Counted from the stretch's first letter, positions 3,454 to 57,697 are shown. The stretch: DNA of 64,000 nt from an uncultured Gemmatimonadales bacterium (GCA_963695185.1 CAVOGH010000003.1:270499-334498); one strand, 5' to 3'. Made by a program: numbers and translations. Notes: generated by a model from the sequence alone, not told the origin.

Positions 3454-3589
3454 GGTTGGGCGATTCGACGACTCGGCGACTTGCGTAAGGTCGGGGTCGG
3501 TGCCGACGAGGAAATGCTGGTACTCTCATCAGGCTGAGCAGCCCGGAGTCCGCGCCGAGCCCCTTCACTTAGCGAATCACCCAACCACC
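3454..3589. repeat. MITE-like palindromic element, subfamily A1 (octamer-array termini)
   Basis: Terminal inverted repeats GGTTGGGCGATTCG / CGAATCACCCAACC. The reverse complement aligns over most of its length with 10190-10336 inside imuB; shared blocks include CTAAGTGAAGGGCTCGGCGCGGA, GAGAGTACCAG, TCGTCGGCACCGA and ACCTTACGC-AGTCGCCGAGTCG. It starts 2 nt after the small-ORF TAG. Confidence 0.75.
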
Positions 3590-5476: not shown

Positions 5477-5716
5477 ATGTTCCAACTGACCCGGGATGAG
5501 GCTGCAAACTTGAAGTCACAATTTGTGACCTCAAGTTTGGCGACTCAGGCTGAGGCGGCAATCTTGAAATCACAAACTGTGATCTCAAGTTCTGGCTGGG
5601 GTGGCCAGCGGTTCTCGCCCCGCTATCGGGTTCCGGTGATGAGGGCCGGGGACCCGACCGTTCACCGGCGCTCCCCGGTGAGACGCGCGAGAGCGTCCCT
5701 GGCCTCCGCCACATAG
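5477..5716 (+). pseudogene. ORF6N/KilA-N-like domain protein remnant
   Basis: MFQLTRDEAANLKSQFVTSS..LKSQTVISSSGWGGQRF matches the conserved C-terminal half of ORF6N-domain proteins (FMFQLT.EE..NL[RK]SQ[IF]VTS..WGG.R). The N-terminal half is absent and the LKSQxVxS unit is duplicated. The 3' end runs into the convergent gene. Confidence 0.45.
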
Positions 5717-6699: not shown

Positions 6700-7604
6700 C
6701 AGCTGCGCCGGAGGCCCGGGCGGTCATTGACGCGGGCAGGAGCCTGGTGGACGTCTCGGATGAACTCTCCGCAACGCTCGAGCTGCTCGACCTCCACGCC
6801 GACGCCGCTCGCGCCGGCATCACCATCGCGGTCGGCCTCGGCGTCGGCCCGGGCATCACCAACATCCTCGCGCGGTACGGGGCGGACCGCCGGGACCGGG
6901 TCGAGGAGGTGCACACCTCCTGGATCAGGCGCGCCTCGGACATGGGCGGACGGGCCCTGGCCATGCACCTGCTCTACTCGAACGCCCACCGCGCGTTCGA
7001 CTTCGCGGACGCCGCGATGCGTGAAGTCCGGCCCTTCGAGGATGGCCGGGAGACCATCGACGACCCGGTCCTGGGTCCCGTCGAGGTGACCCAGATCGGC
7101 CACTCGAACCCTCGCCCTGTCGCGCTACCTCCCGGGACATCCGGCATGCGGACGACGAGGCCACGTATCCTCCCGATGCAGGTGAACGACCTCCTCAAGG
7201 AGCTGGGGCGCGTTGCCCGGTCGGGGCATCCGGTCATGGTCGAAGGACGGCCGGTGGACCGGATGGCCTTCGCGGCCAGCTCTGTGCAGCAGAGCGCCGC
7301 GCCTGGCGGGAGAATCGCAGACCGGCGCGCTGCGCACCGAGGTGCGGGGGGAACTGGCCGGCCGGCCGGTGCGCCTCGTCGATGCCTCCGCGGCCGGATC
7401 GGCATCGGGACCGGAGTGCCGGCCTCGATCGGCGCGATGCTGCTCGCCATCGGCAAGATCGACAAGCCCGGCGTCTGGCCGCCGGAAGCCTGCATCGACC
7501 TCGGAGTGGTTCCTGTCCGCCATCGAGCGGCGGCACATCGGCAATATCGAGGAACAGGTGTTCGACTGGGACCGGCCGGGGAGCCCAGCGCCGTGTCGAG
7601 ATAG
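6700..7604 (+). pseudogene. Saccharopine dehydrogenase-family paralogue, 5'-truncated and multiply frameshifted
   Basis: Homologous to residues ~135-420 of the 237-1394 gene. Compare VDVSDELSATLELLD..GITNILARYGADR.. with VDVSDDFAATLELLD..GVTNILARYGADR... Homologous segments alternate between two frames (e.g. ESQTGALRTEVRGELAGRPVRLV and EWFLSAIERRHIGNIEEQVFDW lie in the 7213 frame). The Rossmann N-terminus is missing. Confidence 0.8.
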
Positions 7605-7646: not shown

Positions 7647-7795
7647 GTCACACGCCACCCGAGGACCCGATGCCGCCTCCCCCAACTCCATCTCGTCCAG
7701 GCCCAGCATCAGGCCGCTAACTCGTTGATCGGCAACCAGATCCATACGTGTACGCGGGGTCGGCAGGACGCCGACTCCACCGAGGCCCGGCCCAC

Positions 7796-8884
7796 ATGAC
7801 AAGGCCCGCCCAGCTCCCCCTGCTCGAGGCCCCGGCCCAGGCCCCGCTGCCGGTGCTCGACACCCGTGCCCGCGGCGCCTCGTTCCACGAGATCCCGGTC
7901 AAGGCGATCCTCAACTCCCCCGCCTCCACCGGCATGGGGTTCTGGTCGCTCAATCCGTACGTGGGCTGCGAGTTCGGCTGCACCTACTGCTACGCTCGTG
8001 AGACCCATAAGTGGGTAGTCGAGCGAGAGACGGCGAAAGGGACGGCTTCCGGCGCGGAGGGTAGCCCTGAGATCGAGTCGCCGAGTCGCCGAGTCGCCGA
8101 GTCGCCCAGCGACGCCTTCGAACGCCGCATCCTGGTCAAGACCTCCGCCGCGGCGGTGCTCAAACGCACCCTCTTTCCCGCCAAGCTCGACGGCTGCACC
8201 CTGGTCATCGGCACCGCCACCGATCCCTACCAGCCCGCCGAACGGCAGTTCCGCCTGACTCGGCAGATCCTCGAGGCGCTGCTCAGCTGGAAGGGGCTGG
8301 CGCTGGGGATCATCACCAAGTCGCCGCTCATCATCCGCGACATCGACCTGCTGGTGCAGCTCAAGGAACGGCACGACCTGTCGGTCAACATCTCCATCGC
8401 CTCCACCGACGCCGCCCTGCTCCGGCGCATCGAGGCCCGCTCGCCGGCGCCCCACGCCCGGCTCCGGGCCCTGTCCCGGCTCACCGATCAAGGCATTCAC
8501 GCGGGGCTGCTCATCGCCCCGGTCCTCCCCGGCATCACCGACAGCCGGGAATCACTGGCCGCCCTCATGGCGGCGGGGAAGGCAGCGGGCGCCCGCTACG
8601 CGGTCGGGTCGGCGCTCCGGCTCGGACCCGCAACCCGGTCCCGCTTCCTTCCTCACCTTGCCCACGAATTCCCGGAGCTGGCCGGCCGCTACGCGCGGCG
8701 CTACGAAAACCGCCAGATGCCGGGACGCGACTATACCGAGGCGCTCTCCGCCCGGATCCGCTCGCTGCAGGCGGAGTACGGCTTCCCCATCCCCGACAGC
8801 CGCCACCGCGAACGGCTGCTCAAGGGCCAGGCGCGGGAAGACGCGGTGCCCGAGGCGGCGGCGCAGTGGTCGCTGGGGTTGTGA
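7796..8884 (+). CDS. Radical SAM protein (SplB/COG1533-like, DNA-repair-photolyase family)
   Basis: CEFGCTYC (CxxxCxxC) cluster motif near the N-terminus, followed by ..ILVKTSAAAVLKR.. and ..ITKSPLIIRDIDLL.. typical of this family. ATG 7796 was chosen (MTRPAQLPLL). It carries an in-frame repeat insertion at 8014-8110. Confidence 0.75.
   Translation: MTRPAQLPLLEAPAQAPLPVLDTRARGASFHEIPVKAILNSPASTGMGFWSLNPYVGCEFGCTYCYARETHKWVVERETAKGTASGAEGSPEIESPSRRVAESPSDAFERRILVKTSAAAVLKRTLFPAKLDGCTLVIGTATDPYQPAERQFRLTRQILEALLSWKGLALGIITKSPLIIRDIDLLVQLKERHDLSVNISIASTDAALLRRIEARSPAPHARLRALSRLTDQGIHAGLLIAPVLPGITDSRESLAALMAAGKAAGARYAVGSALRLGPATRSRFLPHLAHEFPELAGRYARRYENRQMPGRDYTEALSARIRSLQAEYGFPIPDSRHRERLLKGQAREDAVPEAAAQWSLGL
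8014..8110. repeat. Octamer-array element, subfamily A2, in-frame inside the rSAM gene
   Basis: CCGGCGCGGAGGGTAGCCCTGAGATCGAGTCGCCGAGTCGCCGAGTCGCCGAGTCGCCC aligns with 15110-15166 in dnaE2. It encodes ..SPEIESPSRRVAESPSRRVAESPS.. in a loop right after the Fe-S motif. Confidence 0.7.
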
Positions 8885-9022
8885 GCCCCGCCCTGGAGCT
8901 ACAGGCTGCGAAGCCGTGGGCCCCTCCGGGGGCGACCGTTTTGGCAAGGCTGCCTGATATGTGCCGCCAGCCAACGGCAGCGCCCCCGTCGGGGCCCACC
9001 GGCTCCGCAGCCCGCACACACC

Positions 9023-10426
9023 ATGCAGCCACGCCACGTCCTGTTCGTTGACCCGCCGGCCTTCTGCACCACCCTCGAAGGCCTGGTCGCGCCCGCGCTC
9101 CGGGATCGGCCCCTCGTCGTCGCCGCCCCCGGCGCCGACCGCGCCACCGTGCTCGCCCTCTCCCCCGAAGCCCGCGCCGCCGGGATCACCCCCGGCATGG
9201 CGGTGAACCAGGCCAGGAAACGCTGCCCCGATCTCATCGTCCGCCCCCCCAACCCCCGGCTCTACGCCCGCGCCTCCCGCGCCCTGCACCAGATCCTGGC
9301 CCGCTACGCGCCCATCATCGAACCCCACGGCTGGGGCCACGCCTTCCTCGACGTGACCGGCACCGAACGGCTGCTGGGAAAATCGGTCGATATCGCCTGG
9401 AAGATCCACCAGGAATCGCGCGAGCGGCTGCACCTGCCGCTCGCCGTCGGCGTCGCCCAGAACAAGCTGGTGAGTCAGGCGGCGTCGGAGGTGGTCAAGG
9501 GACGACTCGGCGACTCGGCGACTCGGCGACTCGATCTGCTCGAGGTGACTCCGGGGTCCGAAGCAACGTTCCTCGCACCGGAAAGCGTGGCACTGCTCCC
9601 CGACCTCGAGCCCCGCATGCGGGAGCGGCTGGACGACTACCAGCTCGACATCATCGGAGAGATCCAGGCCATCACCGACGACGAGCTGGCCCGGGTGTTC
9701 GGGCTCCCCGGCCGCACCCTCGGCGCCCACGCCCGCGGCATCGACCCCCGGCCGGTGCTGCCGGCGGCGGTCAAGGCGGAGTTCCGCGTCACCCACACCC
9801 TCGGCAACGACAGCAACGACATCGCCCTGCTGCACCGGGTGCTCCGCCACCTGACCGAACGGCTGGGCGCCCGGCTCCGCGCCCGCCACCTCACCGCCCG
9901 ACGGCTCACGGTGCAGATCGCCTACGTGGACTACGCCACCGCCCGTCGCAGCCTGGCGCTGGCCCCCGCCGCCCTCGACGTGGAGCTGCTCGACGCCGCC
10001 CGCCGAGGCCTGGCCCTGGCGCAGCAGCGCACCGTGGCGCTCCGGGCACTGAGCGTGACGGTGGATCGGTTCGTGGAGGAGGATTGTCAGTTGGAGTTGT
10101 TCGGCGGCTCGGCGGCTCGATGGTTCGGCGACTCGGCGACTCGATGGTTCGGCGACTCGGCGACTCGATGGTTCGGCGACTCGGCGACTCGGCGACTCGG
10201 CGACTCGCTAAGTGAAGGGCTCGGCGCGGACCATAGGCTTGCTCTCTCCGAGGAGAGTACCAGTGCTTCATCGTCGGCACCGAACCTCACCTTACGCGAG
10301 TCGCCGAGTCGCCGAGTCGCCGAGCCGCCCAACAACGCGTCCATGCGCCACATCGCCCTCCAGCGTGCCCTCGACCGCATCCGCACCCGCTGGGGGGCCC
10401 GCACCATCGGGGCGGCGACGAGATAG
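9023..10426 (+). CDS. imuB: Y-family DNA polymerase homologue lacking catalytic carboxylates (ImuB-like)
   Basis: Y-family fold motifs are present (VLFVDPPAFCTTLE; IEPHGWGHAFLDVTG; AVGVAQNKLVSQAAS). The position of the SxDEAxLD catalytic Asp-Glu reads GH. QLELF and a C-terminal LDRIRTRWG tail are present. It follows the rSAM gene and lies in the same locus as dnaE2. Two in-frame repeat insertions. Confidence 0.8.
   Translation: MQPRHVLFVDPPAFCTTLEGLVAPALRDRPLVVAAPGADRATVLALSPEARAAGITPGMAVNQARKRCPDLIVRPPNPRLYARASRALHQILARYAPIIEPHGWGHAFLDVTGTERLLGKSVDIAWKIHQESRERLHLPLAVGVAQNKLVSQAASEVVKGRLGDSATRRLDLLEVTPGSEATFLAPESVALLPDLEPRMRERLDDYQLDIIGEIQAITDDELARVFGLPGRTLGAHARGIDPRPVLPAAVKAEFRVTHTLGNDSNDIALLHRVLRHLTERLGARLRARHLTARRLTVQIAYVDYATARRSLALAPAALDVELLDAARRGLALAQQRTVALRALSVTVDRFVEEDCQLELFGGSAARWFGDSATRWFGDSATRWFGDSATRRLGDSLSEGLGADHRLALSEESTSASSSAPNLTLRESPSRRVAEPPNNASMRHIALQRALDRIRTRWGARTIGAATR
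9500..9535. repeat. Short GGCGACTC octamer array, in-frame in imuB
   Basis: GACGACTCGGCGACTCGGCGACTCGGCGACTCGAT encodes ..GRLGDSATRRLD.. between conserved Y-family blocks. Confidence 0.65.
10096..10336. repeat. MITE-like palindromic element, subfamily A1, in-frame in the imuB 3' region, with 3 x 24-bp tandem units
   Basis: TIRs GTTGTTCGGCGGCTCGGCGGCTCG / CGAGTCGCCGAGCCGCCCAACAAC. TCGGCGACTCGATGGTTCGGCGAC is repeated 3x (SATRWFGD x3). The core matches 3454-3589 in reverse complement. The reading frame stays open and the native C-terminus resumes after it. Confidence 0.8.
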
Positions 10427-10472
10427 GACCGATCAGGAACCCGGCTTCACGGCGACACCCGCTCCGCCGGAG

Positions 10473-10862
10473 TCACGCCTCGGCATCGAGACCGTCGGGG
10501 TCCTGCCCCCTCACATACAGGACGGTTGGCCTCGGCTTGACGGTCGGGGACATGATCTCGAGGTACGCCTGTGGATTGATGCCCAGCTCCTGCTCCATCG
10601 GCCCGAAGAGCTTGGCGAAGCCCGGGCTGTCCTCCGGGATCGCAATGACCCCGTACTTGAGGTTCAGGAGCTCGACCAGCAGCACCACCTGGGTGCGAGT
10701 GCCCAGGTCCAGCTTGTACGCCGCAACCTTGCTGACCACCACCCAGGCCACCGCGCGGGTACGATTGCGCACGGTGAGGGTAAAGCCGGTCGCGTCGGCG
10801 GAGATCGTCGGCAGCGGAGGGTTCGGGCCTCGGCCCAGCAGCCGCTCAAGCCATGGCATCAC
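10473..10862 (-). CDS. Hypothetical protein
   Basis: 129-aa ORF with ordinary composition on the strand opposite imuB. No family recognised. Confidence 0.4.
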   Translation of the reverse strand: MMPWLERLLGRGPNPPLPTISADATGFTLTVRNRTRAVAWVVVSKVAAYKLDLGTRTQVVLLVELLNLKYGVIAIPEDSPGFAKLFGPMEQELGINPQAYLEIMSPTVKPRPTVLYVRGQDPDGLDAEA

Positions 10863-10910
10863 GGGAGCCCCCGGGGGTCATCGGTGTCGCACCGCCGCAA
10901 CCGGAATGCC

Positions 10911-11282
10911 TCACACGTGCTGGTCCACCAGGATGGGGTTGCCGTCGGGGTCCAGCGCGGTGAAGCTGGCGGGCCCCGTGGTGGTCTCGTCGGCCTCGGT
11001 GGTGAGCTTCACGCCCTTCGCCTTGAGCTGCCGCTGCAGCTCACGGACGTCGGTGAAGCCGGGGACCAGCTTCGCGTCCTGGTCCCAGCCGGGATTGAAG
11101 GTCAGGATGTTCTTGTCGAACATCCCCTGGAAGAGGCCGATGATATGGTCGCCGTTCTTGAGGATCAGCCACTTCTGGGCGGCATTGCCGCCGAAGACAG
11201 TGAAACCGAACTTCTCGTAGAAGGCCTTGGACGCCGCGATATCCTTGACGGCCAGGCTGATGGAAAACGCGCCGAGTTGCAT
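10911..11282 (-). CDS. VOC/glyoxalase-family protein
   Basis: Internal ATG at 11282 gives a 123-aa protein, [40 protein letters not shown], typical of the glyoxalase/bleomycin-resistance fold. The longer track ORF (to 12083) is an Arg/Pro-rich extension. Confidence 0.7.
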
Positions 11283-11335
11283 GTCGAGTCTCCGGGTGAA
11301 AAGAAGAGGTGCCCGCCTGATCGAGGGCGGGCCGG

Positions 11336-11872
11336 CTACGTGGCGGCGAGGACCTCGGGCTTTCGCTTCCGGCTCAGCAGCCCCGCCGACACCAGCGCAA
11401 ACAGCAGTCCCACCGGCAGCGGCTCGAGAAACGTCAGCGAGATGTTCACCAGCGGATTCTTGTACATCTCCGCGAACTCCGCCATCTCCTGCTTCTTCTC
11501 GGCGAGCTGCGCCTCCGTGGCGCCGGACGCTGCCTCCTTCTCCAGGGCGTAGGCCGAGTATTTCTCCAGGTAGTCGGGAGCGATCTTGCGGTAGACCACC
11601 TGCCAGGTAGCCACGTAACAGACGCACCCGATCAGCATGATCAGGCCACCCACCTGGAAGGCTCGGCCGAACGACACGTTGCCACCCGCCACGTTGTCGC
11701 GGTAGCTCTTCACCCCGACATACACCATCAGGAAGGCGATCACCATCGTGGTGTAGCCGATGATGAGGCCCTTGTCGAAGCCGATCTGGTCGTGGAACGG
11801 GATGGTGAGGAGCATCATCGCCGACAGGATGGCGCCGGCAATCAGTCCGAAGGTCAGCACGATCTTCCGCAT
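11336..11872 (-). CDS. DUF4199-like membrane protein
   Basis: 178 aa with four TM helices and the central SYRDN..GG.(I/V)SF motif typical of DUF4199. Confidence 0.6.
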
Positions 11873-12096
11873 GGCAGCTCCCAGGAGGTTGAGGACGGCC
11901 GATACTACTGCCGGAACGGGCTCCGCGCGTCACCCGAAAGGGTGATTCGGGGGAATTGGCAGGGAAATCATACGAACGGGGGACACAAAACGACCGCAGT
12001 GACCGCCGCCAGGGCTCGGCGCCCGAGACCGGGAGAGGGCGCCGGAGAAGGGGAAAACGGAAACGAGTGGCAGCACGAGGCATCGCAGGCGACCGA

Positions 12097-12186
12097 GACC
12101 GGGGGAGGGTCGGAGGGCGCGTAGGTGCGAGACGGGGACTCGCCCGGCCACCCGCACCTCCAGCGCCTGGAGACCCTCCTCCGGGC
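12097..12186. repeat. Long imperfect palindrome, family C (intergenic copy)
   Basis: GACCGGGGGAGGGTCGGAGGGCGCGTAGGTGCGAGACGG..CCCGCACCTCCAGCGCCTGGAGACCCTCC. The reverse complement of 17190-17265 inside dnaE2 is near-identical over ~75 bp. Confidence 0.75.
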
Positions 12187-12219
12187 GAGGGCGCCGGAGA
12201 AGAGAGGGGAGGACGACCC

Positions 12220-12666
12220 TCAGGGGATGAGCCGCAGTTCCTTGCCCAGCTGCACCGCCTGCGTCCGCCGCCTGGCGCCCAGTTTGTCGAACACTCGGCT
12301 CGAATGGGTCTTGACCGTGTTTTCGCTCACCGACACCCGCTCGGCGATCTCCTTGTTGCTCAGGCCTTCGGCGATCAGCGCCAGGATCTCCAGCTCGCGT
12401 GGCGTGATGCCGAGCGACTCCAGCCTGGCCTCGTCCCGGACAAAGGTGGCCGGCGCCGGCACCAGCACCTCCCGCACCACCACCGTTTCGGCGCGCCGAG
12501 TGAGGCGGAGGCCCAGCCAGATGCCCAGCGCGGCGAACACCGCGGCCACCAGCCCGCCGTAGATCTCCACCGAGTGCTGCACCACCAGCCAGCGGTACTC
12601 GATGAGCCGGAGCCCGGCGATCAGCACCCCGGCGAGGAGTCCGAAGAGGAGCACATGTCGGCGCAT
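12220..12666 (-). CDS. Membrane-anchored LuxR-family HTH transcriptional regulator
   Basis: ATG at 12666 ([19 protein letters not shown]..). Two to three TM helices are followed by the C-terminal LuxR/Ger[48 protein letters not shown]. Confidence 0.75.
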
Positions 12667-12712
12667 GCCCAAGTCTAAGAGCACCTGGCGGAGGGCGGAA
12701 CGGCGCGGCCCG

Positions 12713-13693
12713 CTACCATGTGAGGACGATTTTCCCGAACACCTCGTCGCGCTCCATGACGCCGTGGGCCTCGGCGACGTCGGCAAAGGGCGCGGTGGCG
12801 CCGACGACGGGGCGGAGGCGCCGCGTGCCGCCATCGCCGAATCCCGGCAGCACCTGCGCGCTGAAGGCCGCCACCAGCTCGATGCGCTCTTCCAGCGTCC
12901 GGGTCCGCATCACGCTGCCGATGACCTCCAGCCGCTTGCGGAGAATCGGTTCGAGGCTCAGCTCGGCGGTCGGGCCCTGGAGAAAACCGAGCAGCACCAG
13001 CCGGCCGCGCGGGGCCAGCGCCGCGAGGTTGCCGGCGAAGGCGGGGCCGCCCAGGACGTCGATGATCACATCGAATTCGGCGACTCGGCGACTCGGCGAC
13101 TCGGCGACTCGGCTGCCGAGTTCGAATACTTCGTCGAGCCCGAGCTCCCGGGCGCGTTCGAGCTTGGCGGGCGTCCGGGAGGTGCCCGCCACCGTGGCGC
13201 CGAGCCACTTGGCGAGCTGCACCGCCGCGGTGCCGACGCCGCTGCCGACGGCATGAATCAGCACCCGCTCGCCTGACTTGAGCCTGCCGCGGGTGACCAG
13301 CGCATCCCATGCCGTCAAGAACACCTCGGGGATGGCGGCGGCCTCCGCCAGCTCCATGCCCGGCGGCACCGCCAGCGCCTCGTCCTCGTGCACCACCACG
13401 TATTCGGCGTGGGCGCCGCCGCCCACCAGGCCCATGACCCGGTCCCTGGCGCGCCACCGGGTCACGCCCGACCCCGTCTTCTTCACCACACCCGCATACT
13501 CGAGCCCCGGAATGTCCGCCGGCCAGCCGGATGGCGCGGGATAGCGGCCCTTTCGCTGCAGGATGTCGGCGCGATTCAGGCCCGCGGCCTCAACCCGCAC
13601 CAGGATCTGGTGCGCTGCCGCCTTCGGGGTCGGGACTTCACGGAGTTGCAGGACTTCGGGACCGCCCGCGGCGGTGTTCACAATGGCGCGCAT
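12713..13693 (-). CDS. NADPH:quinone oxidoreductase (zeta-crystallin-like MDR family)
   Basis: MRAIV..GGPEVLQL.EVP.P..GQ(H)ILVRVEAAGLNRADILQRKGRYP..; GSGVGTAAVQLAK nucleotide-binding motif; C-terminal FGKIVLTW. Contains an in-frame octamer array. Confidence 0.8.
   Translation of the reverse strand: MRAIVNTAAGGPEVLQLREVPTPKAAAHQILVRVEAAGLNRADILQRKGRYPAPSGWPADIPGLEYAGVVKKTGSGVTRWRARDRVMGLVGGGAHAEYVVVHEDEALAVPPGMELAEAAAIPEVFLTAWDALVTRGRLKSGERVLIHAVGSGVGTAAVQLAKWLGATVAGTSRTPAKLERARELGLDEVFELGSRVAESPSRRVAEFDVIIDVLGGPAFAGNLAALAPRGRLVLLGFLQGPTAELSLEPILRKRLEVIGSVMRTRTLEERIELVAAFSAQVLPGFGDGGTRRLRPVVGATAPFADVAEAHGVMERDEVFGKIVLTW
13071..13126. repeat. Short hairpin-flanked GGCGACTC array, in-frame in the quinone oxidoreductase gene
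   Basis: TCGAATTCGG-(CGACTCGG)x4-CTGCCGAGTTCGAA encodes ..GSRVAESPSRRVAEF.. on the minus strand, between conserved blocks. Confidence 0.65.
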
Positions 13694-13754
13694 GGGCTGG
13701 TAAGGTATCGCCGGACGCCGGACTTGCGCCCTGCGGGCCCAGGCCGTAGCATAC

Positions 13755-13773
13755 CCGAAGAAATACCGAAGCT
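13755..13773 (-). promoter_or_regulatory. Direct-repeat operator motif, copy 4 (AGCTTCGGTATTTCTTCGG on the minus strand)
   Basis: One mismatch per half-site relative to copies 1-3. It is centred in the 138-bp divergent region between the qor-like gene (start 13693) and tag-dnaE2 (start 13832). No copy of the TTGNCC -35 element is present. Confidence 0.5.
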
Positions 13774-13831
13774 AGAAGGGCTGCCGGGGACCCAGACCGG
13801 CCACACCCCTCACCCTCCATCCTGCGCCCGC

Positions 13832-14363
13832 ATGTCCAGCTACTGCGATATCGCCCCCGGGCACGAATGGCACGGCCCCTACCACGACCGGGAGTACGGC
13901 GTCCCGCTCCGGGAGGACGACGAGCTGTTCGAGCGGCTGATCCTGGAGATCAACCAGGCCGGCCTGTCGTGGCTCACCATCCTCAAGAAAGCGGGAGGGC
14001 TTCCGCCGAGCCTATCACGGCTTCGAGGTGGCGCGGGTGGCGCGCTACGGGGCCCGGGACCGGGCTCGGCTGCTCAAGGACGCCGGGATCATCCGCAACC
14101 GGCTCAAGGTGGAGGCGGCGGTGGCCAACGCGAAGACCGTTCTCTCGCTCCGGAAGAGCCACGGCAGCTTTCATGGCTGGATCGAGGCGCATCACCCGCG
14201 GAGCAAGGGGGAGTGGGTGAAGCTGTTCAAGGGGACGTTCCGGTTCACCGGCGGGGAGATCGTGGGCGAGTTCCTGATGAGCATCGGGGTGCTGCCGGGC
14301 GCGCACCGGGAGTCGTGCCCGGCGTACGCGCGGATCCGGCGGCTCAAGCCGATGTGGATGTAG
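13832..14363 (+). CDS. tag: DNA-3-methyladenine glycosylase I (Tag), interrupted by a 1-nt insertion in this assembly
   Basis: MSSYCDIAPGHEWHGPYHDREYGVP..ELFERLILEINQAGLSWLTILKK, then a shift to ..FEVARVARYGARDRARLLKDAGIIRNRLKVEAAVANA..FTGGEIVGEFLMSIG. Removing one A from AAA 13988-13990 restores ILKKREGFRRAYHGFEV. Confidence 0.8.
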
Positions 14364-14369
14364 GCGTAT

Positions 14370-14448
14370 AGGCGGTTGGGTGGTTGGATCTCAAGGCGAC
14401 CATCCGCGCGGAACACTGAGTTCACACACCAACCGTCTAACCGCCTGT
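14370..14448. repeat. MITE-like element, subfamily B, between tag and dnaE2
   Basis: TIRs AGGCGGTTGGGTGGTTGG / CCAACCGTCTAACCGCCT, with a central TCTCAAGGCGACC core. It starts a few nt after the tag TAG and ends 6 nt before the dnaE2 ATG. Confidence 0.65.
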
Positions 14449-14454
14449 CCGCCC

Positions 14455-17400
14455 ATGTTCACCCACCTCCACGTTCACAGCTGGTTCTCCATGGGAGAGG
14501 GTGTCTCGAGTCCCGAGGCGCTGGCCTCGGCCGCGGTGCGGCGGGGGTTCGGCGCGCTGGCCTGCACCGACACCAACGGGGTGTACGGCGCGGTGGAGTT
14601 CCAGCAGGCGGCCGAGGCCCACGGGCTCAAGCCGATCCTCGGCGCGCACCTGGTGCACGGGACCGAGGAGGCGGTGGCGCTGGCGACAGACGAGCGGGGC
14701 TGGGGCGCGCTCTGCCGGGCGATCACGGCGATTCATTGGGTGGAGGGACGGACGGGTAGACGGACGGACGGGCGGGCGAACGGAGCGACGGGCCGCCGGA
14801 CCGTCCGACCGTCCGACTACCTCTCCACCCTCCTCGCCGCCGACCGCGACGGCCTGCTGCTCCTCTCCCGCGATGCGACGCTGCTGGAGCGGGTGGCCGA
14901 TCTCTCGGGGACGCGGGATCTCTACGCCGAACTCCGGCCCGGCAAGGAGCGCCACGCGGTGGGCCGGGCGGCCCGACGGCTGGGGATTTCGCCGGTGGTG
15001 ACCAACGCGGTGATGTTCGCCAACCCCGAGGAGCACGCGCTGCACCGGCTCCGGGTGGCGATCGGCGACTCGGCGACTCGGCGACTCGGCGATTCGTTCG
15101 CAAGGCCGGGGTCCGGCGCGGAGGGTTACGGTGAGATCGAGGCGCCGAAGCGCCGAGTCGCCGAGCCGACCTCCTGGCTCCGCCCCGGCGCCGACCTCGC
15201 CCGCCACTTCCCCGACTGTCCCGAGGCGATCGGCCGCACCATGGAGCTGGCGGAGCGGTGCGGCTACCGCATTCCCATCGGCCAGCGCACCGTGGCGCCG
15301 AGGATCGCGGCGGCGGAGGAGTCGTTCGCGCGGCTCCGGGCGCTGGCGTACGAGGGCGCGGCCCGGCGCTACGGCACGGTGGCGCCGCTCACCCGGGACC
15401 GGATCGAGCACGAGCTGGCGATCATCGCCCAGAAGAACTTCGCCGACTACTTCCTGGTGGTGCACGATATCGTCCGCCACGGCCCCACCCACTGCGGCCG
15501 GGGCTCGGTGGCCAACTCCATCGTGAGCTACTGTCTGGGCATCACCCACGTGGATCCGCTGGGCGCGGGGCTCCTGTTCGAGCGGTTCCTCAATCCCGAG
15601 CGGAAGGACCCGCCCGACATCGACCTCGACTTTCCCTGGGACGAGCGCGACCAGGTGCTGGCCTGGGTGTTCCAGAAGTATCCCCTGCCCCGCGCGGCGA
15701 TGGTGGCCAACCACAACTGCTTCCGGCTCCGGGGCGCGCTCCGGGAGGTGGCCAAGGTGCACGGCCGCCCGCCGGGAGAGATCCGCGAACTCACCCGCCG
15801 CTTCCCCTGGTTCATGGCGGATGAATCCATGGAAGAGGTCATCGCGCACCACCCCAACTTCAAGGGCCTGGAATTGCCGGCGGTCTGGCAGGACCTGATG
15901 CGGCTGGCGCAGCCGCTGGTGGGGGTGCCCCGGCACCTGTCGCTGCATCCCGGCGGAGTGGTGATCGTGCCGACGGCGCTGACCGACTACGTCCCCATCG
16001 AGCCGGCGGCCAAGCAGCTGGACGGCCATCCCGACCTCACCGTGCCGGTGATCCAGTTCGAGAAGGACGGCACCGAGGACGCGGGGCTGGTGAAGATCGA
16101 CCTGCTGGGGAACCGCTCGCTGGCGGTGATCCGTGACGCGATCGCCGCGGTGGCGGTCAACACCGGCCGGCAGATCGACTACACCTCCGACGATCCCGAC
16201 GACGACGAGGCCACGCACGCGCTCTTCCGCACCGGCCAGACCATGGGCGTCTTCTACACCGAGAGCCCGGCCTCGCGGCTCCTGTGCGCCAAGTCCCGGG
16301 CCGACACCTTCGAGCTGCTGGTGCTCAACACCAGCATCATCCGGCCCGCCTCCAACCGCTACATCCGGGTGTACCTCGAACGGCTGCACGGCGCGCCCTA
16401 CGCGCCGCTCGACCCGTCGCTCCGGGATACCCTCGCCGAGACCTACGGGGTGATGGTCTACCAGGAGGACGTGGTCAATGTGTGCGCCACCTTTGCGGGG
16501 ATGTCGCTCGCCGCGGGCGACGGGCTCAGGAAGGCGCTCTCCAAGAAGCGGCCGGTCAAGGCGCTGGCGTCGTACGTGGAGGATTTCTTCGCCGGCGCCG
16601 CCCGGCTGGGCCGGGACCCGGAGATCGCCAGGCAGGTGTGGGAGATGGTCATGTCCTTTGCGGGCTACAGCTTCTGCAAGGGGCATTCGTGTTCCTATAT
16701 CAAGGTGGCGCAGCACTCCTGCTATCTCCGGGCCCACTACCCGGCGGAGTTCATGGCCGCGGTGCTGGCCAACGGCGGCGGGTTCTATCATCCCTTTGCG
16801 TATGTCTCCGAGGCGATGCGCATGGGGCTCACGGTGCGCCCGCCGGACGTGAATGCCAGCGAGTTCCGGACGACCGGCCGGGGGCGGGAGGTGCGGATCG
16901 GGTTCCAGTTCATCAAGGGGTTGTCGGGGGAGGCGGTCAGGCGGTTGGACGAGGCGACTCGCGGATTCCGGGATCTGGCTCACTTCCGAGTGGAGACCGG
17001 CATCGGGCGGGAGGACCTGCGGCTGCTCATCAAGGTGGGTGCGCTGGACTCGATTGCCCGGGGGATGACCCGGCCGATGCTGCTGTGGGCGGTGGACGCG
17101 GAGTCCCACGCGCCGCCGGCGCCGGCGCCGCTGCTCGACGCTTCGGAGTCGAGTGCTCCGAGCCGTCGAGGCGGGGAAGGGTCTCCGGGCGCTGGAGGTG
17201 CGGGAGCCCGGGTGGGTTCCCGTCTCGCACCTACGCGCCCTCCGACCCTCCCCCGCCTCGACGGCTCGCCTGCCCTCGTTTCTCCGCGGGCGGCAATCCA
17301 ACCGCCCAGCCGCCAAACCGCCCAACCGCCTCACGAATCACCCAATCGCCCAATCGCCCAATCGCCTGCACCTCCCCCCCTCCGCGACTACGACACCGCC

Positions 17401-17802
17401 CGTCGCCGCCGGATCGAGTACCAGCTGCTGGGTTTCACCACCGACTGCCACCCGATGTCGCTCTACCGGGCGGAGCTCAAGCGGTTCCGGATCGTGCCGA
17501 GCACCGAGCTGGGACAGCATGTGGGCCGCACGGTGCTGGCGGCGGGGATGCTCACCACCGCCAAGCCGGTGTCCACCGCCAGGGATGAGCCGATGGAGTT
17601 CGCCACGTTCGACGACGGCCTGGGCCTCATCGAGACGGTGCTCTTTCCCGACGTGTACCGGAAGCGGGCGCACGTGCTGTTCGACCAGGGGCCGTTCATC
17701 TTCCGGGGCAGGGTGGAGGAGGAATTCGGGGCGGTGACGCTCACGATCACCCATCTGGACCGGCTGGAGCGGATGCTGGAGAAGGTGGCCGGACGGCGGT
17801 AG
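14455..17802 (+). CDS. dnaE2: Error-prone DNA polymerase III alpha-subunit paralogue DnaE2
   Basis: ATG 14455 (MFTHLHVHSWFSMGEGVSSPEAL, PHP domain). Pol III alpha core motifs GRGSVANSIVSYCLGIT, DIDLDF, FEKDGTEDAGLVKIDLLGNRSL and C-terminal OB-fold region. Size (about 1,000 aa once the ~280 bp of repeat insertions at 15064-15166, 17160-17267 and 17294-17366 is discounted) and linkage to the imuB-like gene fit DnaE2 rather than DnaE1. Confidence 0.9.
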   Translation: MFTHLHVHSWFSMGEGVSSPEALASAAVRRGFGALACTDTNGVYGAVEFQQAAEAHGLKPILGAHLVHGTEEAVALATDERGWGALCRAITAIHWVEGRTGRRTDGRANGATGRRTVRPSDYLSTLLAADRDGLLLLSRDATLLERVADLSGTRDLYAELRPGKERHAVGRAARRLGISPVVTNAVMFANPEEHALHRLRVAIGDSATRRLGDSFARPGSGAEGYGEIEAPKRRVAEPTSWLRPGADLARHFPDCPEAIGRTMELAERCGYRIPIGQRTVAPRIAAAEESFARLRALAYEGAARRYGTVAPLTRDRIEHELAIIAQKNFADYFLVVHDIVRHGPTHCGRGSVANSIVSYCLGITHVDPLGAGLLFERFLNPERKDPPDIDLDFPWDERDQVLAWVFQKYPLPRAAMVANHNCFRLRGALREVAKVHGRPPGEIRELTRRFPWFMADESMEEVIAHHPNFKGLELPAVWQDLMRLAQPLVGVPRHLSLHPGGVVIVPTALTDYVPIEPAAKQLDGHPDLTVPVIQFEKDGTEDAGLVKIDLLGNRSLAVIRDAIAAVAVNTGRQIDYTSDDPDDDEATHALFRTGQTMGVFYTESPASRLLCAKSRADTFELLVLNTSIIRPASNRYIRVYLERLHGAPYAPLDPSLRDTLAETYGVMVYQEDVVNVCATFAGMSLAAGDGLRKALSKKRPVKALASYVEDFFAGAARLGRDPEIARQVWEMVMSFAGYSFCKGHSCSYIKVAQHSCYLRAHYPAEFMAAVLANGGGFYHPFAYVSEAMRMGLTVRPPDVNASEFRTTGRGREVRIGFQFIKGLSGEAVRRLDEATRGFRDLAHFRVETGIGREDLRLLIKVGALDSIARGMTRPMLLWAVDAESHAPPAPAPLLDASESSAPSRRGGEGSPGAGGAGARVGSRLAPTRPPTLPRLDGSPALVSPRAAIQPPSRQTAQPPHESPNRPIAQSPAPPPLRDYDTARRRRIEYQLLGFTTDCHPMSLYRAELKRFRIVPSTELGQHVGRTVLAAGMLTTAKPVSTARDEPMEFATFDDGLGLIETVLFPDVYRKRAHVLFDQGPFIFRGRVEEEFGAVTLTITHLDRLERMLEKVAGRR
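15064..15166. repeat. Palindromic octamer-array element, subfamily A2, in-frame in dnaE2
   Basis: GGCGACTCGGCGACTCGGCGACTCGGCGATTCG..CCGGCGCGGAGGGTTACGGTGAGATCGAGGCGCCGAAGCGCCGAGTCGCCGAGCC. The arms are inverted copies and the right half aligns with 8050-8108. It encodes GDSATRRLGDSFARPGSGAEGYGEIEAPKRRVAEP. Confidence 0.75.
17160..17267. repeat. 108-bp long palindrome, family C, in-frame in dnaE2
   Basis: A perfect 16-bp outer stem GAGCCGTCGAGGCGGG / CCCGCCTCGACGGCTC extends to ~50-bp imperfect arms. The inner part is near-identical (reverse complement) to 12097-12186. The length is 36 codons, encoding ..[35 protein letters not shown]... Confidence 0.8.
17294..17366. repeat. Octamer array, subfamily B (CCAATCGC/CCAACCGC units), in-frame in dnaE2
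   Basis: CAATCCAACCGCCCAGCCGCCAAACCGCCCAACCGCCTCACGAATCACCCAATCGCCCAATCGCCCAATCGCC is the complement-orientation version of the GGCGATTGGGCGATTGG arrays seen after stop codons. It encodes ..QPPSRQTAQPPHESPNRPIAQSPA... Confidence 0.7.
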
Positions 17803-20288: not shown

Positions 20289-20321
20289 GGTGGTAGGCGA
20301 TTGGGCGATTGGGTGGTGAGG
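20289..20321. repeat. Octamer array, subfamily B, after a stop codon
   Basis: TGA is followed directly by GGTGGTAGGCGATTGGGCGATTGGGTGGTGAGG. Confidence 0.55.
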
Positions 20322-41306: not shown

Positions 41307-42340
41307 ATGCCACGCGCCATCGGGGTTGATCCGGGCACCGTCTCGATCGACGTCTGCGGGCTGGCGGACGGCGAGATCTTCCTCGACGCCAGCCTGCCCA
41401 CCGCCGAGGCTCTGGCCGAGCCCGACACCTTCCTGCAGCTCCTCTCCAGTCACGGGCCGCCCGACCTGATCGCCGGCCCGTCCGGGTACGGCCTTCCACT
41501 GCTCCCCGCCGACCGCACCACCGAGGACGACCTGCGCCTGGCCTTCCTTGCCGCCGACGGCGAAGCCGGCGGCATCGGAGGGCTGCGCCGGATGGCCATG
41601 CTGCTGGCCGGGTCCGGGCTGCCGGTGGTCTTCACCCCGGGGGTGATCCACCTCCCCACGGTGCCGGAGCACCGCAAGCTCAACCGGGTGGATCTCGGGA
41701 CGGCGGACAAGGTGGCGGCGGCGGCGCTGGCTGTGTGGCAGGAATCCCAGCGGCGAGCAACCAGCGCGGACCGGACCTCGTTCTGGCTGCTGGAACTGGG
41801 TGGCGCGTTCACGGCCGCGATGGCGGTTCGGGACGGGGCGATCGTGGACGGCCAGGGAGGCAGCAGCGGACCGATGGGATGGCAGGCGGCGGTGGGTGGG
41901 ATGGCGAGGTCGCGTTTCTGGCCCGGGAGGTCACCAAGGACCTGCTGTTCCAGGGGGGCCGGGTTTCACGGCCCGGGCCGGTAGGCCTCGCCGCGTACGT
42001 CGAGGGGGTGCACCGGGCGGCGCTGAGTCTCTCCGCCGCGCACCCGAAGCCGGAGGTCATCCTGCTGTCCGGCCGGCACGCCGGCGACCCGGATGTCCGG
42101 GGCGCGCTGGAACCGAGGCTGCGGTCGCTCGCCCCCGTGGCAGACCTCACCGGGTTCGCCCGGGTGGCGAAGAGCGGGGCGCAGGGCGCGGCGCTCATCG
42201 CGGACGGGCTGGCCGGGGGCCGGCACGCGGACATCGTGGCGGCGCTGCGACTGCGGGAGGCACGTGGCACGGTACTCGACTACCTGACGGTGATCACCCC
42301 GGCCGCCGCCCGCCAGCGCCTGGGCATGACGGACCGCTAG
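41307..42340 (+). CDS. DUF1464-family (acetate/sugar-kinase-fold) protein of H4MPT clusters, one frameshift in this assembly
   Basis: MPRAIGVDPGTVSIDVCGL.. in the 41307 frame continues as ..DGEVAFLAREVTKDLLFQGG.. in the 41735 frame. The junction (-1) lies around 41880-41905. Confidence 0.6.
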
Positions 42341-43377
42341 GGCCCGCCCGCGTCTCCCGCGAGCCAGGCGACGGCCACCGCCGGCGCGCAGTCCGAAACC
42401 AGCTCCCGCAGGCCGGCGGCGGCCGGGGTGAGGCTGGAAAACTCGCGGATCGGCCGGCCAAGCGACGAGGCTACGCGGGCCGCCACGAATCGCCCGGCCC
42501 CGGCGCTGATCACGGGGGCATCCGGCGGAACCATCGCCCGCCTCGCAACCTCTGACATGGCCGCCGCGATCTGTGCCGCCTGGCGACGGGCCAAGTCGCG
42601 CGCGAGGCCCACCCACACGCCGAGCGAGGCGGAGGCGGCGTCGCGACCGACCATGCGGGCCAGGCGCCGGGCGCTCGCCTCCGGGCTCTTGTCGCCGCCA
42701 TCGGCCGTGGAATGCAGATCGGCGCCGCCGGGAAGTTCCCCAGTCAGCCGATAGACGTCCGCCGCGGTGGCGAAGTACTCCGCCATGAGGGGAATCTCCA
42801 CATCCTCCACCCGTGCCGCCGGGGCCAGTGCCATGACCGGGGTGCGAACCACGCCGGTGTAGACCAGTTCGCGGCTGACCAGTCGTTCGGCGTCGGTGCT
42901 GCCCTGCGCCACGACCTTGCCCCCGAGAATGGCGATGACGTCGGTCGTCGTGCTGCCGATATCCACCAGCAGCGCCGCCGGCGTGTGGCGTGCCACCAGT
43001 TCCGCGCTCGCCCGCCAGTTGGCGGAGGCGATTTCGGCGGTCCGCGTCGCAATGGCCGCAGGCGGCACGAACCCACGCAGCCCGTAGTAACGGCACTCCG
43101 CTCCGGCGAGGAGTTCCCGCATTCGGCCGGCGATCCGCACGACCCCCTCGCCCCGATCGGGGAAGAGATCCACCATCTCGCCGGTCATCGTGACGGCATG
43201 CACCGGCGCCGAGCCGAGCCGCTCCCGCGCCTCCAGGATCCCGGCATCGAGATGCTCCATGCCCCGCCACAGCGGGCAGGGGAGCTGCACCACCCGCTCC
43301 ACCACACCTTCATGGTCGAGCCGTGCGGCCTTGATGTGGGCTCCGCCCAGGTCCCAGCCGATGACCGGGTCACGCAT
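42337..43377 (-). CDS. Hydantoinase-A-like 'H4MPT-linked C1 transfer pathway' protein
   Basis: ..VIGWDLGGAHIKAARL.., ..LLVDIGSTTTDVI.. and ..ELVYTGVVRTPV.. are ASKHA/hydantoinase_A-type motifs. ATG 43377 was chosen; it overlaps the upstream stop (ATGCGTGA). Confidence 0.7.
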   Translation of the reverse strand: MRDPVIGWDLGGAHIKAARLDHEGVVERVVQLPCPLWRGMEHLDAGILEARERLGSAPVHAVTMTGEMVDLFPDRGEGVVRIAGRMRELLAGAECRYYGLRGFVPPAAIATRTAEIASANWRASAELVARHTPAALLVDIGSTTTDVIAILGGKVVAQGSTDAERLVSRELVYTGVVRTPVMALAPAARVEDVEIPLMAEYFATAADVYRLTGELPGGADLHSTADGGDKSPEASARRLARMVGRDAASASLGVWVGLARDLARRQAAQIAAAMSEVARRAMVPPDAPVISAGAGRFVAARVASSLGRPIREFSSLTPAAAGLRELVSDCAPAVAVAWLAGDAGGP

Positions 43378-57599: not shown

Positions 57600-57611
57600 G
57601 CTACCCGTCGT

Positions 57612-57690: not shown

Positions 57691-57697
57691 CACCCTC

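Follow-up and report, generated by a model that had tools for sequence, protein, structure and literature searches.

Four genes of an uncultured soil bacterium of the Gemmatimonadales, encoding a radical SAM protein (rSAM), an ImuB-like polymerase paralogue (imuB), a quinone oxidoreductase (qor), and a DnaE2-type polymerase (dnaE2), carry tandem arrays of 8-nt units and hairpins in frame within their coding sequences, and related copies lie in the intergenic DNA of the same region. The probable explanation is that these are lineage-specific dispersed repeats of Gemmatimonadales, tolerated in frame and then turned over in place. An initial annotation of this stretch of 64 kb (hereafter the window) had placed such repeats in frame in the same four genes, and all four ORFs turned out to be intact, with Pfam domains on both sides of every insert, the conserved family blocks resuming after the inserts as it had claimed. 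It had also regarded the repeats as dispersed and non-native, which is borne out by pairs of intergenic and intragenic copies and by distant homologues without the segments.

Octamer units and their arrangement in the window

The main 8-nt unit is GGCGACTC, accompanied by variants one or two steps away (GGCGATTG, GGCGGTTG, and GGCGGCTC) and by a second series of units, GGACGGTC. They occur either as an octamer array alone or as two inverted arms flanking a core of 40–90 nt, which gives a MITE/REP-like hairpin. The basic module is the tandem octamer array and not the palindrome, the array-core-array forms being a minority outside this lineage. The 16-mer GGCGACTCGGCGACTC, with at most one mismatch, has 20 sites in the 64-kb window against 0.01 expected from shuffles, all of them within 8–15.1 kb, and arrays of the GGCGACTC family are confined to 3.4–20.3 kb of the window, with none in 20.4–64 kb. 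Period-8 arrays were located by Tandem Repeats Finder at 8074–8106, 9503–9533, 10099–10207 (also resolved as a 24-nt super-unit repeated 4.5 times), 10297–10329, 13077–13113, 15057–15096, 15138–15165, 17298–17366, and 20296–20313. All nine of these sites, like the window's six longest inverted repeats, fall in 3.4–20.3 kb.

As 8 and 3 share no factor, an octamer array translates to one and the same cyclic octapeptide whichever of the three frames is read, and since the units are also stop-free in all six frames, any copy with a total length that is a multiple of three can be read through. The peptides GDSATRRL and ESPSRRVA, named in the initial annotation, are indeed found in the translations. 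Its list of positions held for the arrays but had overlooked one copy in dnaE2 (14738–14830) and a degenerate one in qor (12815–12838). Its description of all copies as palindromic octamer elements has to be narrowed, the rSAM copy being a non-palindromic half element, and two of the listed segments (17160–17267 and 12097–12186) belonging to a separate hairpin family without octamer arms. All features are collected in Table 1; hairpin potential across the folded elements ranges from z -2.8 to -9.2.

Table 1. Host genes and repeat copies in the window.
Feature	Position	Strand	Description	Basis or remark
Intergenic palindromic element	3454..3589	.	degenerate GGTTGGGCGATTCG arms	terminal stem in DNA fold; core match
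rSAM host gene	7796..8884	+	radical SAM protein, Rv2578c/PA0069 family	Pfam, NCBIfam
rSAM half element	8014..8110	+	core + (GAGTCGCC)4; peptide ...GTASGAEGSPEIESPSRRVAESPS	in frame
imuB host gene	9023..10426	+	ImuB-like Y-family polymerase paralogue	Pfam IMS, IMS_C; sub-threshold Pol IV matches
imuB site 1	9501..9535	+	GACGACTC(GGCGACTC)3; peptide RLGDSATRRL	in-frame array
imuB site 2	10096..10336	+	complete hairpin element, 81 in-frame codons	fold, inverted repeat
Intergenic GC-rich hairpin	12083..12200	.	paralogue of dnaE2 17159-17268	92% to dnaE2 copy; fold z -2.9
qor host gene	12713..13693	-	NAD(P)H quinone oxidoreductase, PIG3 family	Pfam; NCBIfam TIGR02824 above cut-off; PDB 4dup alignment
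qor site 2	12815..12838	-	possible degenerate array remnant; peptide GDGGTRRL	weakest call of the set
qor site 1	13071..13126	-	(GGCGACTC)4.6 on + strand, coding strand SRVAESPSRRVAE	period-8 array
Intergenic hairpin	14354..14462	.	GGCGGTTG / CAACCGCC-type arms, between tag and dnaE2	fold z -2.8; inverted repeat
dnaE2 host gene	14455..17802	+	DnaE2-type (error-prone) Pol III alpha homologue, 1115 aa	Pfam, NCBIfam
dnaE2 element 0	14738..14830	+	hairpin, (GGACGGAC)n / (GGACCGTC)n arms	fold z -3.8; inverted repeat
dnaE2 element 1	15057..15170	+	35 in-frame codons	fold z -5.2
dnaE2 element 2	17159..17268	+	110-nt near-perfect GC-rich hairpin, no octamer arms	fold z -9.2; in frame
dnaE2 element 3	17294..17366	+	CAACCGCC / CAATCGCC array; peptide AIQPPSRQTAQPP...NRPIAQSP	translation
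Intergenic array	20296..20313	.	(GGCGATTG)2.2	8 nt past Beta-lactamase stop codon

Intragenic and intergenic copies

The longest rSAM ORF begins at 7748. Its copy, a core with one arm (DNA fold z -0.3), matches dnaE2 at 87% over 54 nt (8048–8101 and 15112–15165), and the L002 orthologue, 92% identical outside the insert, is 18 residues shorter at this position. The ImuB paralogue has lost the catalytic DxD and DE motifs, as read from its translation. Its site 1 has no insert in distant homologues (VKP--GL in the ImuB alignment) and a (CCCCGGTC)3 array at the equivalent position in L002. Site 2, the longest inverted repeat of the window (DNA fold z -4.5), is made up of a 24-nt super-repeat, (GGCGACTC)4, an 89-nt core (10208–10296), and (GAGTCGCC)3-4; it aligns with a linker of ~12 residues in distant homologues, and L002 has a different core there.

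At site 1 of qor the repeat-derived peptide substitutes for a native stretch of equal length, with nothing added relative to PDB 4dup, a stretch that we take to be a helix of the Rossmann fold as in other quinone oxidoreductases; L001 and L002 have GGCGATTG and GGCGGTTR arrays there in the opposite orientation. Site 2 (coding strand GGCGATGG CGGCACGC GGCGCCTC) resembles a native motif of the PDB homologue, with just 2 extra residues, and in relatives it is occupied by a full palindromic element (L001) or an array (L002).

The DnaE2 product is identical to database protein P0001. Element 0, with arms GGACGGAC / GTCCGACC and the peptide EGRTGRRTDGR...RRTVRPSD, lies in a loop that is hypervariable among orthologues and is predicted as coil by AF2 (residues 97–117, pLDDT <50). 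Element 1 combines (GGCGACTC)3-4, a core of ~45 nt, and (GAGNCGCC)4, for a net gain of ~18 residues over E. coli Pol III alpha; its core is common to four genomes, appearing with other arm units in L001, L002, and L111 (across the four genomes the arms are GGCGACTC, GGCGGTTG, or GGCGATTG). The hairpin of element 2 is 92% identical over 78 nt to an intergenic copy (17178–17255 and 12100–12177); L001 retains its first 36 nt, the rest being deleted, and it is absent from L002 and the remaining orthologues. At the site of element 3, L001 has a shorter CAACCGCC array. The structure model proposed as a check in the initial annotation does predict the inserts as low-confidence coil between confident blocks, which is weak evidence in an AF2 model that is poor overall (mean pLDDT 57).

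Between genes, the element at 3454 begins 2 nt past the stop of a 53-aa ORF and shares its core family with imuB site 2 (82% over 118 nt between 3459–3575 and 10205–10321, in reverse orientation). The 12083 hairpin is kept at the equivalent position in L001 (98% to L001 719–816), and the array at 20296 is positionally conserved in both L001 and L002. The right arm of the 14354 hairpin overlaps the dnaE2 ATG at 14455, and an array occupies the equivalent place in L002 (8148–8168). Each of the three core families has exactly two copies, within 14 kb, with no others in the rest of the window or across ~560 kb of loci from relatives. Two local copies each and none elsewhere make these families odd for a freely dispersing element.

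Turnover at shared sites

Alignments show that the repeat segments are absent from distant ImuB homologues, E. coli Pol III alpha, and the PDB quinone oxidoreductases. Outside the inserts the host genes are 82–92% identical to their orthologues. Relatives at 83–85% DnaE2 identity carry repeat-derived DNA in the same loops, differing in unit type, copy number, core, and even orientation. The clean insertions expected by the initial annotation are thus not what is seen, since these loops already hold other repeat DNA, and for the same reason the insertion sites are old ones under turnover. Its statement that inserts fall in loops or linkers stands for imuB site 2 (a linker) and the dnaE2 loop, but not for qor site 1.

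The two L002 copies are 81% alike, and orthologous copies just 60–67%. That copies within a genome are closer than orthologous ones points to resident elements under turnover, among which in-frame variants alone would survive. The loop sites vary in length in all Gemmatimonadales orthologues, and every orthologue examined (four syntenic genomes and 120 DnaE2 hits) is full-length and in frame, contig-end truncations aside.

Arrays in other Gemmatimonadales

Octamer arrays recur in many MAGs that were assembled independently, by different projects and with different assemblers. In related Gemmatimonadaceae MAGs they are mostly intergenic and adjoin stop codons; one such MAG has 21 arrays between genes, 8 adjoining gene ends, and 3 within genes. 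Most are single, with no inverted partner, and where they are paired the order is always forward-then-reverse. Of 67 gene 3' ends next to an array, 41 fall at -3 to +8 nt from it, TAG makes up 59% of the stops next to arrays against a 31% background (p = 0.003), and directly 5' of the arrays there is an excess of TA and TAG, with no matching copy on the distal side. In-frame hosts in relatives also include an amidase, two Ser/Thr kinases, and a second DnaE2-type gene; the latter, in SMAG_U13842, is an independent case, one of just 2–3 intragenic cases sampled there.

No direct repeat indicating a target-site duplication was seen at the element ends, and no consistent distal flank. No transposase domain was detected in the 20 genes of 0–22 kb, nor among the large genes farther along the window, and the relatives compared gave no empty/filled pair with sharp boundaries.

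Host bias and origin of the elements

Relative to orthologues, the repeat hosts have 18–85 gap residues and the syntenic neighbor genes 0–5. Peptides with a period of 8 residues were present in 21 of 120 DnaE2 orthologues and in 2 of 120 control helicases, and in L001 and L002 the arrays likewise keep to imuB, qor, and dnaE2. The set of hosts does not follow from weak constraint alone, because neighbor genes of faster substitution (62–75% identity) have no indels. Over-representation in imuB and dnaE2 is supported, as measured against one helicase family and the syntenic neighbors in a window chosen for this cluster; loop tolerance and mechanism are both possible causes. The concentration in mutasome genes proposed by the initial annotation holds in this excess, but qor is not a mutasome gene and rSAM is linked to the mutasome by adjacency alone.

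Most copies are found in 3' intergenic spacers, and those landing in permissive loops or linkers persist within the reading frame; this much is shown. Replication slippage may then add or remove units (24-nt in-frame super-units among them), deletion at hairpins may leave half elements or single arms in either orientation, and arm units and cores may be exchanged through ectopic conversion or replacement by other copies of that genome, with purifying selection purging variants that break frame or fold. A host function would be unnecessary, and the excess in imuB, dnaE2, and rSAM would be explained most simply if these genes, rarely expressed and induced by damage, have loops of unusual tolerance. 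As the comparisons above gave no transposase, target-site duplication, or empty/filled pair, the copying mechanism is one that we infer. We consider it unlikely that the mutasome itself is involved, with elements accumulating in imuB, dnaE2, and the damage-response genes nearby either because ImuB-DnaE2, or SOS-time transcription and repair of this operon, would create or copy them locally by hairpin template switching, or because hairpins would be retained for attenuating the expression of a dangerous polymerase. Such a link would agree with the clustering of arrays, longest inverted repeats, and both copies of each core family in 3.4–20.3 kb, with the same three hosts recurring in L001 and L002, with the DnaE2 excess over helicases, with the array in the independent SMAG_U13842 gene, and with the element overlapping the dnaE2 start codon. 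However, qor, the amidase, the two kinases, and other genes host arrays too, the long variable loops and linkers of DnaE2 and ImuB would tolerate insertions anyway, and the controls comprise one family and the syntenic neighbors, in a window selected for the cluster. An undescribed, actively homogenized octamer-array system, tied mechanistically to the SOS mutasome by local seeding or by hairpin attenuators or switches, seems to us quite doubtful; if this tie were true, the stop-codon-adjacent arrays elsewhere would reflect specific targeting or a termination-linked mechanism.

We regard an active MITE as distinctly improbable, that is, an element with arms acting as terminal inverted repeats for a transposase encoded elsewhere, inserting at TA or stop codons and leaving in-frame copies as rare survivors. 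The overall form of inverted arms and core (100–240 nt), the forward-then-reverse order of pairs, the tight spacing to gene 3' ends with its TAG enrichment, and the different family members at the same site in close relatives would all suit it, but most arrays in relatives are single and unpaired, neither a target-site duplication nor a consistent distal flank was found, the 21 kb surrounding the elements contain no transposase, the cores are low-copy, and arm length varies continuously, as slippage would give. Gain or loss of 8-nt units could also, in principle, shift the frame and switch the mutasome on or off within a population; a unit coprime to 3, the 3–5 perfect units inside imuB, dnaE2, and rSAM, and the varying copy number between relatives are what such contingency loci would have, yet this is very improbable given that the orthologues examined are all in frame, contig-end truncations aside, that imuB has expanded by 24-nt in-frame super-units, and that arrays are mostly intergenic elsewhere, with tracts short for efficient switching. 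Native low-complexity linkers or repeat misassembly are scarcely credible. Loops of variable length exist at these sites in all Gemmatimonadales orthologues and short-read contigs do break at arrays, but four unrelated genes share identical nucleotide arrays, in either orientation, with one another and with intergenic DNA, the arrays recur in independent MAGs, the reading frames are intact, and distant homologues lack the arrays; this explanation is already contradicted by such data.

Comparison with known repeat families

Rickettsia palindromic elements (RPEs) are dispersed palindromes of ~100–150 bp, both intergenic and in frame in unrelated genes (Ogata et al., 2000, via PMC10969869), where they add a peptide at fold-compatible positions (PMC10969869). 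The parallel with RPEs drawn in the initial annotation is sound as regards behavior, with intergenic and in-frame copies of the same family, the latter inside unrelated functional genes, and with hairpins, which are formed by imuB site 2 and dnaE2 elements 0, 1, and 2 (z -3.8 to -9.2); the rSAM, imuB site 1, qor, and dnaE2 element 3 copies are arrays or half elements. Unlike RPEs, which have no tandem short units, the elements described here have octamer-array arms that also occur alone, their hosts are free-living Gemmatimonadales with 65–69% GC, and they exhibit fast turnover of unit, core, and orientation, homogenization within the genome, and a bias to imuB and dnaE2. They would thus appear to work like RPEs without being filed as members, and given the tandem-octamer build sequence homology is very unlikely.

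Bacterial MITEs (ERIC, BOX, Correia, and those of Anabaena and Coxiella) occasionally give translational fusions with host ORFs (PMC10969869, PMC3184786). The array-core-array copies resemble them in their terminal inverted repeats, short non-coding core, small size (<~300 bp), and hairpin potential, but their arms are tandem arrays of variable length instead of fixed terminal repeats, arrays are mostly single in relatives, and no target-site duplication, parent IS, or transposase was found for them. Dispersed heptamer repeats of cyanobacteria (STRR) and Beggiatoaceae, for which a regulatory role near the DNA-repair genes recF and recO has been discussed, precede start codons or sit in spacers, with no translated in-frame segments reported (bioRxiv 10.1101/2022.06.06.494920). 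They share with the octamers contiguous dispersed units of 7–8 nt, lineage specificity, and a mostly intergenic location near gene ends; the octamer unit differs in being 8 nt long, GC-rich, and stop-free, in standing beside stops and inside ORFs, and in pairing into hairpins. Membership in STRR, which are contiguous repeats of a 7-nt unit in the intergenic DNA of heterocystous cyanobacteria, was rejected given the 8-nt unit, the different phylum, and the intragenic copies, and the likeness is one of analogy only. REP/BIME sequences and the REPINs mobilized by RAYT are GC-rich extragenic palindromes at gene 3' ends, REPs being single imperfect palindromes of 20–40 nt with GTAG or CGTC tags and essentially extragenic (PMC3733652). 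Like REPs, the octamer elements are GC-rich, concentrate at gene 3' ends, and are homogenized inside each genome while close relatives differ in them, but membership was rejected because they are tandem GGCGACTC / GAGTCGCC without GTAG or CGTC; no RAYT/Y1 transposase is found among the annotated genes of the region.

The octamer arrays share with contingency loci a tandem repeat in coding sequence with a unit length not divisible by 3, but no out-of-frame alleles were seen, the tracts are short, and the arrays are mostly non-coding elsewhere. Phase-variable simple-sequence loci of that kind are known from Haemophilus, Neisseria, and Campylobacter, and membership among them was rejected because all orthologues examined are in frame. 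No Rfam family was found for the repeats, nor any published description of repeats of this kind.

Should this hold genome-wide, RPEs would be joined by another, independent case of selfish repeats inside working bacterial genes, one with a different mechanism, in an abundant soil phylum and with a unit whose length, coprime to 3, makes it a frame-independent, stop-free "peptide cassette." It raises the testable question of why error-prone polymerase genes should be preferred hosts. Unit type, copy number, and orientation, which vary at 83–85% DnaE2 identity, offer fast-evolving markers at fixed protein loops. For Gemmatimonadota MAGs there is a practical side: short-read assemblies fragment at the arrays, as at P0041, which is truncated where its contig ends inside one, and gene callers and length models of protein families can be led astray by them.

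Repeat elements and their host genes

The 1115-aa DnaE2-type polymerase of the window (69% GC) is identical to a database protein, and its nearest named relatives are Gemmatimonadales MAGs. The Y-family paralogue has lost the catalytic acidic motifs, as read from its translation, and is therefore considered ImuB-like. Among the neighboring genes are two coding for DinB_2 proteins and one for a glyoxalase/bleomycin-resistance protein, besides tag (3-methyladenine DNA glycosylase, 13833–14363). The latter shows an apparent frameshift, with an extra A in AAGAAAG near 13985–13995, which could be either a genuine pseudogene or a homopolymer sequencing error; the tag orthologue in L002, a contig from a relative, is intact (179 aa). 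Within NCBIfam the rSAM family has a sister model covering a subfamily whose members contain an intein; the window protein matches the HMM in two stretches, the second restarting directly past the repeat insert, and a search of this protein against PDB gave no match.

Host genes (assigned from Pfam and NCBIfam) and repeat elements of the window, with the content of the same sites in the relatives' contigs L001, L002, and L111, z values of the DNA fold, and copies paired by self-BLAST
Feature	Position	Window	Relatives	Fold z	Self-BLAST pair
rSAM gene	7796–8884	radical SAM protein, Rv2578c/PA0069 family			
rSAM copy	8014–8110	half element, no hairpin		−0.3	8048–8101 with dnaE2 15112–15165, 87% over 54 nt
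imuB gene	9023–10426	ImuB-like Y-family polymerase paralogue			
imuB site 1	9501–9535	(GGCGACTC)3	L002: (CCCCGGTC)3		
imuB site 2	10096–10336	hairpin, long core, GGCGACTC arms	L002: rSAM/dnaE2_1-type core	−4.5	core with intergenic 3459–3575, 82% over 118 nt, inverted
qor gene	12713–13693, minus strand	PIG3-type quinone oxidoreductase			
qor site 2	12815–12838	degenerate remnant	L001: full palindromic element; L002: array		
qor site 1	13071–13126	(GAGTCGCC)4, coding strand	L001: (GGCGATTG)4, L002: (GGCGGTTR)4, opposite orientation		
dnaE2 gene	14455–17802	DnaE2-type Pol III alpha homologue			
dnaE2 hairpin	14736–14820	hairpin		−3.8	
dnaE2_1	15057–15170	hairpin, core TCCGGCGCGGAGGGT..GAGATC, GGCGACTC arms	core common to all four genomes; arm units L001 GGCGACTC, L002 GGCGGTTG, L111 GGCGATTG	−5.2	
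dnaE2_2	17159–17268	full 110-nt hairpin	L001: first 36 nt only; L002: absent	−9.2 (17155–17272)	17178–17255 with intergenic 12100–12177, 92% over 78 nt, inverted

Tandem Repeats Finder recovered period-8 arrays wherever the initial annotation had placed them, together with an additional array at 20296–20313. The 16-mer (GGCGACTC)2, allowing up to one mismatch, occurs at 20 sites against 0.01 expected, all 20 within 8.0–15.1 kb. Translation returned the octapeptides GDSATRRL and ESPSRRVA as reported, and peptides spanning the insert junctions include ...GDSATRRLDLLEV and ...ESPSRRVAEFDV. That copies are dispersed both in and between genes was borne out by three pairs found by self-BLAST, and the element hairpins are the longest inverted repeats of the entire 64 kb. 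Two copies had been overlooked, a GGACGGAC/GTCCGACC hairpin at 14738–14830 in dnaE2 and the degenerate remnant in qor. In the left arm of the imuB element (10099–10207) expansion went by a 24-nt in-frame super-unit, GTTCGGCGACTCGGCGACTCGATG, present in 4.5 copies with 92% matches and encoding WFGDSATR three times, so that the frame was kept during growth.

Compared with homologues at 38–42% identity, which read VKP--GL without insert at imuB site 1, the window protein is also much longer at site 2, with 95 residues versus a linker of ~12. The second dnaE2 site has 43 residues versus 25 in E. coli Pol III alpha. In an AF2 model of DnaE2 the inserts (residues 97–117, 189–239, and 886–969) appear as coil with pLDDT <50, flanked by blocks at 80–94, although the model is poor (overall pLDDT 57) and, given this low confidence, counts as weak support only. 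The qor array peptide SRVAESPSRRVAE aligns with a native stretch of PDB 4dup of equal length, and this array is therefore a replacement, probably of a helix, and not an addition.

The same sites in close relatives

Three contigs from relatives, L001, L002, and L111, encode DnaE2 at 85, 84, and 83% identity, respectively. At each insert site the relatives hold repeat-derived sequence too, but a differing one. Orthologous copies are less alike than copies of the same genome: the L002 copies at dnaE2_1 and imuB site 2 are 81% alike, versus 67 and 60% when the former is compared with the dnaE2_1 copies of the window and L001. The repeat DNA at shared sites indicates that these were occupied before the lineages of the window, L001, L002, and L111 split, while the differing contents, together with the likeness within genomes, indicate that site content has turned over and been homogenized within genomes. 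The initial annotation had described insertions into genes; fresh insertion at empty sites does not hold, since the dnaE2, imuB, and qor sites of the relatives already contain other repeat DNA.

Such turnover could proceed by replication slippage acting on resident arrays, by hairpin-mediated deletion of element parts, and by ectopic conversion or replacement between copies, with selection for frame and fold filtering the variants. No transposase was found among the annotated genes of the element region and the large genes of the window, nor any target duplication at the element ends, and the orthologues examined include no out-of-frame alleles. The 859-aa DnaE2 database protein P0041 was considered as a frameshifted allele and discarded, as it is truncated by the contig end inside the dnaE2_1 array arm. 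Independent short-read assemblies break exactly at arrays (L111 1–130 and a Logan contig ending near window position 3440).

Whichever of its three frames is read, an octamer array encodes one cyclic octapeptide; the octamer units of the elements are stop-free in all six frames. This last property was rejected as a special trait, ~74% of composition-weighted octamers being stop-free in six frames at this GC. Variant units bearing TAG (GGCGATTA and CGGATAGC) were seen in spacers or at gene ends only.

Bias toward mutasome genes

The proposed concentration of intragenic copies in mutasome genes was supported by three comparisons, in a window that had been chosen for its cluster. Syntenic control genes (9–12 neighbors common to the window and L001 or L002, 62–96% identity) have 0–5 internal gap residues, versus 18 in rSAM, 49 in imuB, 8 and 40 in qor, and 85 and 77 in dnaE2. 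Intragenic arrays in L001 and L002 are found in imuB, qor, and dnaE2 only. Periodic peptides of 8 residues occur in 21 of 120 DnaE2 orthologues, all at the four variable sites and with many different octamers behind them, versus 2 of 120 in the orthologue set of an HrpA-like helicase that the window also encodes, and the standard deviation of length is 36.6 versus 15.2. The bias is real at the level of these comparisons. It could stem from tolerant loops; arrays also occur in qor and other proteins.

Distribution in other genomes

When 185,579 species genomes were scanned for (GGCGACTC)3, the matches listed came mostly from MAGs of Gemmatimonadaceae and Gemmatimonadales, produced by several projects, with other phyla appearing only sporadically. 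The Gemmatimonadaceae MAG SMAG_U13842 has at least 31 eight-kb blocks with this array. Placement was classed by a simple codon-usage gene caller, which found 21 arrays intergenic, 8 adjoining gene ends, and 3 intragenic among the matches listed for this MAG, and 7 of 7 strict arrays intragenic in the window. Among the matches listed, in-frame hosts elsewhere are orthologous amidases, with arrays at the same site in different copy number, two Ser/Thr kinases, one 169-aa protein, and a second DnaE2-type polymerase. This second DnaE2-type polymerase, of SMAG_U13842 (locus L008, 6092–7999), has its in-frame array (PPSRRAAEPPSRRVAESPSRRVAESP) at a different place, in the loop between blocks HGVEVRPPCL and LRVGWRFVRGIG. 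Forward–reverse palindromic pairs are rare in the relatives, and the reverse–forward order was not seen, among the matches listed.

Across the array-bearing loci of relatives (L003–L110, among the matches listed), for 41 of 67 adjoining gene 3′ ends the intergenic array begins −3 to +8 nt from the stop codon, and start codons are, with one exception, 12 nt or more away; TAG is over-represented among the adjoining stops (59% vs. 31%, p = 0.003). Arrays often share bases with the stop codon (TA/GGCGACTC, TA/ACTCGG), and stop-adjoining starts are also present in the window (3452/3454 and 20288/20296). Searching for GDSATRRL and ESPSRRVA repeat peptides in a 5.8-billion-protein database gave only nine short hypothetical ORFs and did not reveal the host families, and metagenome DNA scans with a 21-mer of the dnaE2_2 hairpin and with an array-N20-50-array pattern gave no match.

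Relation to described repeats

The closest functional counterpart is the family of Rickettsia palindromic elements; in-frame fusions are known from other MITEs as well (PMC10969869), and cyanobacterial dispersed heptamer repeats have a similar tandem-unit build (10.1101/2022.06.06.494920). The Gemmatimonadales repeats work like either of the first two, and are not assigned to any described family. Rfam gave no match at gathering score, weak miRNA-precursor matches reflecting the long hairpins only. In literature full text, taking in few subscription journals, GGCGACTC matched only primers, and such repeats were not found described for Gemmatimonadota.

Other inverted repeats in the window

The hairpin at 14354–14462, between tag and dnaE2, has GGCGGTTG-type arms, the right one covering the dnaE2 ATG (14455), and contains GAAC-N5-GTTC (14411–14423) in its loop; GAAC-N4-GTTC is also found upstream of rSAM (7552–7563). 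These motifs and the start-codon hairpin may be SOS boxes or act in translational occlusion. As a LexA box, GAAC-N4-6-GTTC was rejected, with three sites versus 1.9 expected, which is not above chance. Directly past a TAG stop, the intergenic hairpin 57600–57692 has arms of another octamer (GCTATCCG/CGGATAGC), whose unit includes a stop codon in one frame, and is the sole octamer-type element in 20–64 kb. Two further inverted repeats have no relation to the octamer families: an AT-richer, near-perfect intergenic hairpin of 116 nt (5490–5605, DNA fold z −6.2), with weak miRNA-like Rfam matches, and an intergenic inverted repeat (42294–42431) with 25-nt arms, 92% complementary and 88 nt apart.
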